A stretch of 33,991 nucleotides of DNA from Dehalococcoidia bacterium. Lineage in GTDB: Bacteria; Chloroflexota; Dehalococcoidia; DSTF01; JACRBR01. The stretch is from positions 1 to 33,991 of the forward strand of contig JBGQBE010000036.1 of NCBI GenBank assembly GCA_041494685.1. The letters are read 5' to 3'. The translations under genes were made by a program, and so were the position numbers. The notes beneath the pieces are model-generated. The model worked only from the letters and a program-made list of their open reading frames with translations, ran no database searches and was not told where the DNA came from. Positions 11,904 through 13,609 of this stretch are shown one piece after another (position 1 is the first letter of the stretch; each line of letters begins with the position of its first letter).

Positions 11904-12167
11904 CCGGGCGGCGGTTCGATGGGATGGAGGAGGGGCGCCCTGCGCGAGAACGCCGCGTGTCGGTTCCGCGGAGGCGCGCGGACCAGCAGGGCCGGCGCGA
12001 GAAGGCGCGGACGTGTGCGAGGGGCTACGGGATGCGGTGCGGCGGACGATGCTGAAGAGAGAACTGGACCGGGCCGAGCCGCGGGAATGTCTGTTGGAAC
12101 GCAGACGTGTCCGACGACCGGGGGATCGACGGCGCGGGTTGCAGGCCCGCGGCTCGACCCGGCGGCG

Positions 12168-12431
12168 TCACACGGATCGCGGGCCCGAGCCGGCAATCTC
12201 GACGTGGGACGCCACTTCGCTTGGAAGAAGTGCACGCGCAGAGCGCGGGTCGGAGTCACGGGGGTCAGGGTCAGGGGTAGAGGGGTCGTGACGCCGGCCG
12301 ACTTCGCCAATGGAAGCGCTAGGTACTGGTGCGGAGGCTCGCGTGGCGGGCGTGGTGCGGTTGAGCAGGGCGAGGCTGGCAAGCCGCGCTTCGGCGCTCT
12401 TCGGTCCGCGTGTCGATGCGAACAATGCCAC
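12168..12431 (-). CDS. Hypothetical 87-aa small protein downstream of the c-di-GMP riboswitch
   Basis: GTG preceded by GGACGGAGAG, within the tail of track ORF 12168..12752. The product is low-complexity with no recognised family and may be non-coding. Confidence 0.3.
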   Translation of the reverse strand: MALFASTRGPKSAEARLASLALLNRTTPATRASAPVPSASIGEVGRRHDPSTPDPDPRDSDPRSARALLPSEVASHVEIAGSGPRSV

Positions 12432-12527
12432 GGCGATCTCTCCGTCCAAGGGACGGGACGGAGGGGCGTAACAATACCCTCGATCCGCAGCGGGATGAGG
12501 GCTGCAGACTCCGACCTGTCCAGGTGC

Positions 12528-12616
12528 CTTCGGCGGCCCGGCGGCCATATCCCGGGAGGGACTGTAGGCCCGTGGCTTTGCGTCGCCGCCTTTCGACGGG
12601 TTTGCCTTTGTCGGAG
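12528..12616 (-). ncRNA. Cyclic di-GMP-I (GEMM) riboswitch aptamer
   Basis: Minus strand reads CUCCGACAAAGGCAAACCCGUC-GAAA-GGCGGCGACGCAAAGCCACGGGCCUACAGUCCCUCCCGGGAUAUGGCCGCCGGGCCGCCGAAG. It has GGCAAAC, a GAAA tetraloop, GACGCAAAGC, a CCUA..AUGG receptor and a terminal GCCG. Confidence 0.92.
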
Positions 12617-12841
12617 CGATCTTCTGTTGTTGTACTCCATGAATCGGACGGCGCCCCGGGATCTGTTGGTCATGGGGAACTCTTTTTTCGCACGTCGGGC
12701 GAGCCTTGTGACGCGGCCCATCGCGCCGGTCAACAGACGTGCGACGGCGCATTGGACGCCCCTAACGGCTTCGAAACACCTGTCCTTTTCCGGGGTCGAT
12801 AGTATGGGTGCGGGACCAAGGGTGATGATGGGAGGATGTCT

Positions 12842-13609
12842 ATGAACAAGAAGAAGTGGATAGCGGCTATCGCGGGTGTCGCGGCAGTGCTGGTGATCGG
12901 CGCGGGCGCCGTCATGGCGCAGACCCCGGCGACGCCGTCGGCGACGCCGTCGTTCCTGGACCGCGTAGCGCAGAAGCTCGGCATCGATACGTCGAAGCTG
13001 AAGGACGCGATCACGGGCGCGCGCAACGACCAGGTCGATGAGGGCGTCAAGAACGGCGACCTGACGCAGAAGCAGGCCGACGCGCTGAAGCAGCGGATCG
13101 CGAACAGCCCCAACGGCGGCTTCGGCCCGGGCATGGGCGGCCGCGGCTTCAAGGGCGGATTTGGCGGTCCGGGATTCGGCCCGGGGCTGGCCGGCGCAGA
13201 GACGAAGCTCGCCGACTTCCTGGGGATCACCCCCGACCAGTTGAAGACGGAACTGCGGGCGGACAAGGCCACGCTGGCCACCGTCGCGGCGGCGCACGGC
13301 AAGTCGCGCGATGACCTGAAGAAGTTCGTCACCGACACGGCGAAGTCGTCGCTCGACACAGCGGTCAAGAACGGCGACCTGACGCAGAAGGTGGAGGACA
13401 CGATCCTCCAGAAGCTGAACGACAACCTGGACAAGATCGTCGACTCGGCGTTCGGCCACGGCTTCGGCATGGGCTTCCCCGGCGGGCGCGGTCACCACGG
13501 CGGCCCGTGGGGCGGCAACATGCCGGCTCCGGGCGCACCGTCGCAGGGCGGTCAGTCAACGCCGCAGCAGCAGAGCGGCAGCGGCATCGGCAGCTTCAAC
13601 CGCTCGTAA
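12842..13609 (+). CDS. Secreted Gly-rich helical hypothetical protein with internal repeat
   Basis: GGAGG RBS before ATG 12842. Signal peptide MNKKKWIAAIAGVAAVLVIGAGAVMA. VKNGDLTQK occurs twice (27-nt exact repeat at 13046-13072 and 13364-13390), with GGFGPG-rich linkers. Confidence 0.85.
   Translation: MNKKKWIAAIAGVAAVLVIGAGAVMAQTPATPSATPSFLDRVAQKLGIDTSKLKDAITGARNDQVDEGVKNGDLTQKQADALKQRIANSPNGGFGPGMGGRGFKGGFGGPGFGPGLAGAETKLADFLGITPDQLKTELRADKATLATVAAAHGKSRDDLKKFVTDTAKSSLDTAVKNGDLTQKVEDTILQKLNDNLDKIVDSAFGHGFGMGFPGGRGHHGGPWGGNMPAPGAPSQGGQSTPQQQSGSGIGSFNRS

Follow-up and report, generated by a model that had tools for sequence, protein, structure and literature searches.

Background

In the EutX/Rli55 systems, an AdoCbl riboswitch and a downstream RNA domain make up one free-standing transcript that acts in trans (accessible text of PMC5821096). 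In the mgtL leader, drop-off of the ribosome at EPDP controls Rho termination (PMC11282234, partial text), and both DPDPEPE, from yagN, and EPDPTP are described as ribosome-destabilizing motifs (in the available part of PMC11162784). The 6C sRNA binds mRNAs through C-rich loops without chaperones (PMC6486639, excerpted text), and in Clostridioides difficile a c-di-GMP-I riboswitch lies upstream of the small ORFs of the CD1980.2 family, the products of which are near-identical, membrane-associated and repressed by termination (PMC13724677, in the portion available).

Here we analyze a locus that resembles each of these systems in part, in a 33,991-nt stretch of DNA from a Dehalococcoidia bacterium of the phylum Chloroflexota (hereafter, the window). 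Its aptamer scores above the cut-off of the c-di-GMP-I family (RF01051, Vc2 type) and contains G20, A47 and C92; it differs from the family, however, in that it heads no stable protein-coding target and would instead gate an ORF that runs into a structured RNA. As in EutX/Rli55, the riboswitch and the RNA domain are independent of their neighbors, the downstream gene being variable or convergent while the unit stays intact, but the ligand of EutX is a different one, its control is by termination and its RNA carries ANTAR-binding dual hairpins, whereas the output of the element, judging from its sequence, is apparently translation into the RNA domain. With the mgtL and yagN motifs the element shares alternating proline and acidic residues in a short ORF, along with the prevalence of the act of translation over its product; the motif of the element, in contrast to that of the mgtL leader, is located at about codons 36-65 rather than at the N-terminus, within a covarying hairpin loop and under a riboswitch, and the constant co-transcribed downstream gene expected of an mgtL-type leader is lacking, an SRPBCC gene being next in 17 of 27 genomes. 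The 6C/B11 sRNAs of high-GC Gram-positives resemble the element in their conserved, single-stranded loop rich in C and in the high GC content of the host, but the element has no Rfam match, contains a single long hexamer-repeat loop within a multibranch fold of about 270 nt, and is predicted to be both translated and riboswitch-gated. The likeness to the CD1980.2 family is limited to the position of a small ORF behind a c-di-GMP-I riboswitch, given that the ORF of the element is non-hydrophobic and near-neutral and overlaps the RNA structure. Finally, none of 40 copies of the element contains the small hydrophobic toxin ORF of type I toxin-antitoxin loci. The element lacks a defining property of mgtL-type leaders, of 6C, of type I toxin-antitoxin systems and of the C. 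difficile small-protein family. Our literature searches found no description of a unit composed of a riboswitch, an ORF and a structured RNA, an uncurated version of which could sit in the supplements of large ncRNA motif surveys, and found no paper that joins Dehalococcoidia, riboswitches and c-di-GMP.

Conservation and genomic neighborhood of the element

By DNA search of 61 genomes, the entire stretch 12670-12045 was found to be conserved within the family; this conservation, which includes a strongly covarying two-domain RNA of about 270 nt, had been overlooked in the preliminary description of the window. A covariance model of the element core yielded one strong match per genome, in a single copy, in 27 of the 36 genomes of the family. 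The target that the aptamer seemed to lack is the 480 bases that follow it, which stay conserved where the downstream gene is exchanged. Among the nine family genomes without a match, one (G004) has a contig that ends at this position, four are 61-76% complete, and four belong to the genera g9 and g7 (81-94% complete). At the level of the order, three weak matches (25-31 bits), all without the loop, were obtained, and at the level of the class there were three weak matches outside the family (23-26 bits); the model found no match in 150 other genomes of the phylum. In a species-wide pattern scan, 18 of the 24 matches came from Chloroflexota, all 18 with an aptamer 278-311 nt upstream. The six matches from outside Chloroflexota, as well as two viral matches, were rejected as signs of a wider range, having neither the aptamer nor the hairpin.

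Most of the counts given below refer to a working set of 40 copies that consists of 26 genome copies and 14 in-frame metagenome copies. The 25 stretches retrieved in the metagenome scan comprised 15 new copies with an aptamer, four duplicates, four without an aptamer in the fetched DNA and two that were not matched by the follow-up pattern; one new copy that is out of frame (L142) was excluded from the 40, and the copy in genome G001 was checked separately. One of the 27 genomes (G021) is unpublished; it is the source of copy L012 in the sets of 26 and 40 and of one of the 14 pairs used for dN/dS estimates.

The features of the element are as follows:

12641..12668, minus strand: candidate alternative-sigma promoter (-35 CAACAGAT at 12668-61, 12-nt spacer, -10 TCCGATTC at 12648-41), from motif conservation
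12528..12616, minus strand: c-di-GMP-I aptamer with G20 = 12606, A47 = 12579 and C92 = 12533 (RF01051, 74.3 bits; RF03167, 66.3 bits)
12509..12518, minus strand: switching strand (C/G)GGUCGGAG, with either 12616-10 (P0) or the pyrimidine-rich pre-SD segment as partner, from conserved alternative pairings
12476..12508, minus strand: two mutually exclusive helices, namely a terminator-like hairpin (12502-12476) and an alternative helix (12508-01/12491-84)
12440..12465, minus strand: anti-SD segment (12465-56) and SD-containing arm GGACGGAG (12447-40), forming an 8-bp hairpin in the window
12168..12431, minus strand: small ORF, 87 aa in the window, with start and frame conserved up to the loop, and N-terminal residues and stop not conserved
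12207..12323, minus strand: RNA domain I, with closing helices, a three-way junction and a 13-bp hairpin presenting the C-rich loop, from covariation
12261..12286, minus strand: C-rich loop of hexamer repeats, unpaired in 39 of 40 copies at a predicted probability above 0.7
12068..12213, minus strand: RNA domain II, with a variable hairpin (12213-12164) and a long helix (12163-46/12087-68) that closes a multiloop with CUGCA (12144-40)
12025..12052, plus strand: candidate convergent (antisense) promoter of the same type as that of the element, aimed into domain II, from motif conservation

The neighborhood downstream of the element is not stable. In the window, an SRPBCC gene lies about 646 nt away and has an extended -10 of its own at 11903-11895, in line with the preliminary description. 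This gene is directly next to the element in 17 of the 27 genomes; the other 10 have another or a convergent gene, or no co-directional ORF. The next gene is convergent in G032, with the element intact, and no co-directional downstream ORF passes the filter in G014; elsewhere, the next gene is one that we take, by recognition of its sequence, to be aspartase-like, DinB-like or nucleoside-diphosphate-kinase-like. In five genomes, it encodes a large protein that looks secreted; these proteins (L084, L088, L089, L091 and L094) are 780-830 aa long and have Thr-Pro linkers and tandem acidic DxDxDG repeats, and the two of their genes that were inspected have a near-consensus sigma-70 promoter. The downstream genes bear promoter-like motifs of their own. 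The earlier suggestion that read-through would place the SRPBCC-ATPase-vWA run under c-di-GMP control finds no support in these arrangements: the SRPBCC gene is next to the element in no more than 17 of 27 genomes, it has a promoter motif to itself, and one genome has a convergent neighbor. No intrinsic terminator was flagged at the 3' end of the element, so read-through into the downstream gene is possible.

The upstream divergent gene and a two-component pair are more constant neighbors than the downstream genes. In the window, the divergent gene (12836-13609, plus strand) encodes a 257-aa protein with a signal-like N-terminus and Gly-rich repeats that has no match in Pfam or NCBIfam and that, in most relatives, is syntenic with the element and with an OmpR-type regulator and a kinase.

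The aptamer and its candidate promoter

The c-di-GMP-I aptamer previously noticed on the minus strand is borne out by a match to RF01051 at 12529-12616 (74.3 bits against a cut-off of 35; E = 1.2e-14), and so is the G at 12606, which is equivalent to G20 of Vc2. G20 selects c-di-GMP over cGAMP. The remaining key positions, A47 (12579) and C92 (12533), are canonical as well; all three are named as ligand contacts in the available text of PMC11218506. Under clan competition in cmscan, the clan sister RF03167, the GGC variant, is the best match by E-value, at 66.3 bits. We rejected the GGC variant as the class of this aptamer: the window copy has an A, not the G of the GGC consensus, at the position equivalent to A47, and therefore the aptamer is canonical at G20/A47/C92 despite the top rank of RF03167 by E-value. 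The context CGCAAAG is invariant among 26 copies. By its sequence, the aptamer is an ordinary member of the c-di-GMP-I family, for which binding of c-di-GMP is predicted from its class. The genome of the window contains four matches to RF01051, including this aptamer.

Ahead of the element, a candidate promoter motif is found in 36 of 40 copies, with a 12-nt spacer in 34. Its -10 resembles the FliA/WhiG -10 consensus. The same motif precedes another c-di-GMP riboswitch in the genome of the window, and the promoter profile, which was trained on homologs of the element's promoter, matches 124 sites genome-wide compared to 31 in the reversed control.

Several related loci were observed in the genome G000. 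A c-di-GMP-I riboswitch is located directly ahead of a gene for a FliA/WhiG-like sigma factor (L004:667-1425, minus strand, contig C52), in a genome without flagellin; the sigma protein scores 182.5 bits, slightly below the family cut-off of 189.6. A second FliA/WhiG-like sigma factor, 37% identical, is encoded on contig C4. Membership of the element in a flagellar regulon was rejected given that no flagellin was found in the genome. On contig C5 (L001:1440-1640, plus strand), a further c-di-GMP-I riboswitch has the shared promoter motif and a P0-like CUCCGA/UCGGAG helix, and is followed by a U-tailed hairpin and then by a secreted-looking gene; the L002 riboswitch heads a similar gene.

A covarying RNA structure downstream of the riboswitch

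Downstream of the switch region, the RNA is predicted to fold into two domains. A hand-drawn structure of 51 pairs, scored on 26 copies from which it was itself drawn, has 90.6% of its cells paired and double changes at 30 pairs, the relatives being treated as independent in these covariation statistics although they are kin. None of 500 shuffles was as good, and slid registers were only 33-39% paired. RNAalifold independently predicted 40 pairs, with double changes at 24. In domain II, double changes occur at 19 of the 26 helix pairs, and the CUGCA of the multiloop is conserved in 39 of 40 copies. The domain I model (R1) scores 109.8 bits at the window copy, which is itself part of the model.

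The orientation of the structure was examined in several ways. Folding z-scores favor the riboswitch strand in 36 of 40 copies for domain I and in 35 of 40 for domain II; raw folding energies favor the opposite, G-rich strand. G-U outnumbers A-C at the paired positions (94 vs 46). Against Rfam, the 3' structure yielded only chance-level matches in the window (E <= 10), and in eight relatives the aptamer alone was matched (E <= 1). No housekeeping RNA was found at the locus; tmRNA and RNase P RNA are encoded elsewhere in the genome, and the 6S model (RF00013) finds nothing genome-wide, G000 being 97.6% complete.

The 5' strand of aptamer P3 (12563-12577) and the strand that enters the domain II multiloop (12140-12154) are identical at 13 of 15 nt, possibly as a result of an old duplication.

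The small ORF and the C-rich loop

As described previously, a GTG at 12431 opens an ORF of 87 codons that ends at 12168. What is conserved in this ORF is its start and its frame. Each of the 26 genome copies has an SD-led start in the frame of the loop, and all candidate starts with an SD score of at least 4 share that frame. In the 40 copies, the distance from the start to the loop takes 13 values between 108 and 189 nt (36-63 codons), all multiples of three; the lengths modulo 3 are distributed 18/13/9 for the leader, 40/0/0 from start to loop and 21/15/4 from the loop to domain II. Because the starts of the 14 metagenome copies were picked as in-frame, the unbiased count of in-frame copies is 41 of 42, that is, the 26 genome copies, G001 and 14 of the 15 new metagenome copies. 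The one exception, L142, has single-base indels even at invariant positions of the aptamer, so that its loss of frame is consistent with sequencing error. In the two other frames, the loop is preceded by stops in 22 and 11 of the 40 copies, respectively.

The encoded protein is not maintained in the same manner. The dN/dS ratio of the N-terminal part of the ORF is 0.80 (14 pairs), compared to 0.16 for the SRPBCC gene (six of those pairs), and even in the core of the ORF it is 0.69. The length of the ORF varies from 77 to 129 aa over the 40 copies, with an idiosyncratic stop position, and the reading frame is lost 3' of the loop. No hydrophobic segment was detected in any of the 40 copies (no 19-residue window with hydropathy of at least 1.6). 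A search with the ORF profile retrieved 34 predicted proteins in the loop frame from public data, none with a Pfam domain, whereas a protein search with the single ORF produced nothing at E <= 1 and no family match, and a search of the ESM Atlas produced only sub-threshold leads. The conserved core, GRxHxTPTPDPDP, has three invariant Pro columns, with R, H, P, T and D nearly so.

The near-invariant loop, ACCCCAACCCCUGACCCUGACCCC, is read in frame as TPTPDPDP, with (T/P)PTPDPDP in the relatives and PSTPDPDP in the window copy. It contains about 16 C and 2 G. Its wobble positions are frozen on non-preferred Pro codons: CCG occurs at one of the 160 codons at Pro positions of the loop, compared to 63% of Pro codons genome-wide. 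DPDP is present in 36 of 40 copies, and the Asp residues can be replaced by Ala, Asn, Tyr, His or Thr. Taken together, the kept frame, the near-neutral N-terminus, the wandering stop and the frozen wobble positions of the loop indicate that translation up to the loop, rather than the 87-aa protein, is under selection. A programmed frameshift at CCC-C was considered and rejected given that the other frames contain no conserved ORF after the loop.

The switch region

The complementarity between CUCCGAC (12616-10) and GUCGGAG (12515-09), noted before, is present, and its seven pairs are kept in 24-26 of 26 relatives; because P0 never varies, it has no covariation support. According to the Rfam structure line, P0 occupies bases of the aptamer helix P1, and hence it is best read as an anti-aptamer. 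The strand that provides GUCGGAG can alternatively pair with the pyrimidine-rich segment ahead of the SD. In 27 of 40 copies, this pairing beats shuffled sequences at p <= 0.05 (the window copy has p = 0.085); it is better than pairing with control ORF segments in 38 of 40 and shows compensated changes, for example, in L036 and L145. Since this conserved helix can free the SD, a switch in which c-di-GMP would turn translation on is favored, on mixed support. In ensemble folding, 12 of 39 copies have an SD that opens (by more than 0.1) and seven have one that closes; the SD of the window copy is unchanged.

The 8-bp hairpin 12463-56/12447-40, which was previously seen to bury an SD-like sequence before the GTG, is indeed present in the window, and is significant against shuffles in just nine of 40 copies. 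A terminator-like hairpin (12502-12476) that had gone unmentioned has a folding energy of -14.9 kcal/mol in the window and is present in all 40 copies, with at least five U in its 8-nt tail in only 17; in these 17, the U-tailed hairpin could instead provide a transcriptional OFF switch. The helix that excludes it (12508-01/12491-84) is an RNAalifold prediction, with three double changes at one pair.

A proposed regulatory RNA toggled by translation, and the alternatives

The combined evidence points away from a switch for a neighboring gene and toward a signal-controlled regulatory RNA of a kind not described before. Among the options offered in the preliminary description, a long leader or sRNA is the one that is supported; the switchable translation of a small ORF is supported likewise, inasmuch as the ORF lies behind an SD, shares its frame with a conserved motif in all but one of 42 copies and is adjoined by a helix that can free the SD, whereas the 87-aa protein as the product is not supported, considering the idiosyncratic stop (77-129 aa), the frame lost after the loop and the N-terminal dN/dS of 0.80. 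We tentatively favor, with confidence just short of an even chance, a riboswitch-controlled regulatory RNA that is toggled by its own translation.

Under this model, the element would be a free-standing transcription unit of about 590-620 nt in which the structured RNA is the working part and the ORF is a device for ribosome delivery. The unit would be transcribed with an alternative sigma factor of the FliA/WhiG type, and the aptamer would bind c-di-GMP, an activity that is established for the class and predicted here. As suggested by the conserved alternative pairings, without the ligand GUCGGAG would be paired with the 5' strand of the aptamer (P0), and the pyrimidine-rich segment could cover the SD; with the ligand bound, P1 would form, the freed strand would capture the pyrimidine-rich segment, and the SD would open, switching translation on. 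By conservation, ribosomes would then read 36-63 near-neutral codons in a single frame that leads into domain I and through the TPTPDPDP loop; past the loop, the reading frame would be irrelevant. Pausing or drop-off of the ribosome on the alternating, non-preferred Pro codons, DPDP being known as a destabilizing motif, might unwind or cover the C-rich loop, and the loop, when exposed, might be a site for a G-rich RNA or a protein acting in trans, so that c-di-GMP would toggle a regulatory RNA. A more specific version of this model, namely, a new class of RNA in which a riboswitch-gated, throw-away ORF parks or drops ribosomes on a loop of Pro codons and thereby toggles a trans-acting RNA, appears to us rather doubtful; within that version, the RNA may serve as a decoy of tRNA-Pro(GGG) or of G-rich messages. 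A search for a conserved trans target found none: the best candidate, a 13-nt complement located ahead of a gene on contig C3, was rejected, being present outside the element in just three of 36 genomes. A template RNA for a reverse transcriptase of the retron or DRT kind, considered on account of the hexamer repeats, was also rejected, with no match to PF00078 in the 97.6% complete genome.

The least remote of the alternatives, although one that we regard as unlikely, is a cis-acting attenuator resembling mgtL, in which stalling or drop-off at PDPDP, or coverage of a C-rich Rho-loading site by the ribosome, decides on read-through or RNA stability, integrating c-di-GMP with Pro-tRNA, EF-P or Mg2+ status. 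Such an arrangement has a precedent in mgtL, where EPDP drop-off controls Rho termination (PMC11282234, partial text), and it would account for the signature of an arrest leader, that is, a variable N-terminus of at least 36 codons and a frame kept up to the motif and lost thereafter; the loop with its roughly 16 C and 2 G, the Rho encoded in the genome and the lack of a flagged intrinsic terminator at the 3' end are also compatible with it. Nevertheless, 10 of 27 genomes have a different downstream gene, which in G032 is convergent although the element there is intact; the downstream gene also bears a promoter-like motif of its own, and a Rho site would presumably require neither an exact hexamer sequence nor a covarying second domain. 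The possibility that the small protein itself is the effector, a disordered polypeptide of 77-129 aa that acts via the GRxHxTPTPDPDP core while the RNA structure merely stabilizes the message, seems improbable to us. It draws on the conserved SD, start and frame, on the invariant or nearly invariant core residues, on the ORF being predicted by gene callers in 34 public proteins and on the precedent of riboswitch-controlled small proteins in C. difficile (PMC13724677, in the portion available); it has to contend with dN/dS ratios of 0.80 upstream and 0.69 even in the core, a stop and a C-terminal frame that are not kept, the absence of hydrophobic segments in 40 of 40 copies and of any family match, and synonymous positions in the core that are frozen on non-preferred codons, which selection at the protein level does not explain. 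Also improbable, and slightly more so, is a sense/antisense pair, in which the convergent promoter makes an antisense RNA over the structure, with mutual regulation of the two transcripts in the manner of type I toxin-antitoxin loci, the antisense of the loop being four G-tracts capable of forming a quadruplex. These tracts are present on the plus strand (12261-12284), and just past domain II the opposite strand carries a conserved -10-like motif, CGATG by a loose pattern in 34 of 39 copies, with a plausible -35; the promoter profile score exceeds both controls in 28 of 39 copies. The antisense site of the window, however, is weak (2.6, below one control), the structure statistics favor the sense strand, no hydrophobic toxin-like ORF is present, and 177 such four-tract motifs are scattered across the genome.

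Still less probable in our estimate is a decoy of tRNA-Pro(GGG), with the loop CCUGACCCCC pairing with the anticodon loop and the 3' stem strand; the RNA would thereby titrate or sense the very tRNA by which the CCU and CCC codons of the loop are decoded. A perfect 10-nt complement exists in 25 of 40 copies and one of at least 8 nt in 39, and only 0.3% of shuffled loops reach 10 nt with tRNA-Pro(GGG); yet a 10-nt match to some tRNA arises in 11% of shuffled loops, a match to tRNA-Pro(GGG) arises in 9% of synonymous recodings, and tRNA-Ala(GGC) fits the loop equally well. The tRNA arm is identical in 15 relatives outside g9, and one pair differs in g9 and in the family f2, where the element was not found; this difference is phylogenetically confounded, and in G009 the loop has changed while the tRNA has not. 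The complementarity of the loop to tRNA-Pro(GGG), as a match between sequences, may serve as a lead only. G000 has two tRNA-Pro(GGG) genes (C1:110557-110633 and C67:10141-10216), the second of which differs in the anticodon stem, the D-arm region and the T-arm and may be an integration-site remnant. The last reading, an orphan riboswitch left after the deletion of its target gene and followed by a non-functional spacer, was raised in the preliminary description and is contradicted by the data, to the extent that we consider it barely credible. The structured RNA is missing from genus g9, where a similar riboswitch, complete with P0 and hairpin (G008, L087:2600-5400, plus strand), directly heads two genes that we take, by recognition of their sequences, to be an ATPase-like gene and one with a GGDEF motif; because this riboswitch heads ordinary genes, riboswitch targets do change in the lineage, a point in favor of this reading. 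However, the supposed spacer shows conservation, covariation and a constrained frame in 27 of 36 genomes, and a remnant is thereby refuted.

Implications

The favored reading accounts for a c-di-GMP riboswitch that looked like an orphan, and brings to light a covarying RNA of about 270 nt that has no match in Rfam and is confined to one family. If the more specific version given above, a new class of RNA, is true, c-di-GMP signaling, the status of proline decoding and an alternative-sigma program would be joined in one molecule. A conserved frame without a conserved protein, together with frozen wobble positions in the loop and the absence of a fixed downstream gene, forms a clear evolutionary sign of translation that serves as a mechanical input on an RNA. 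If confirmed, the element would extend riboswitch-controlled sRNAs from the termination-gated type, as in EutX/Rli55, to a translation-gated type, and would provide a handle on c-di-GMP regulation in an unstudied lineage of Chloroflexota.
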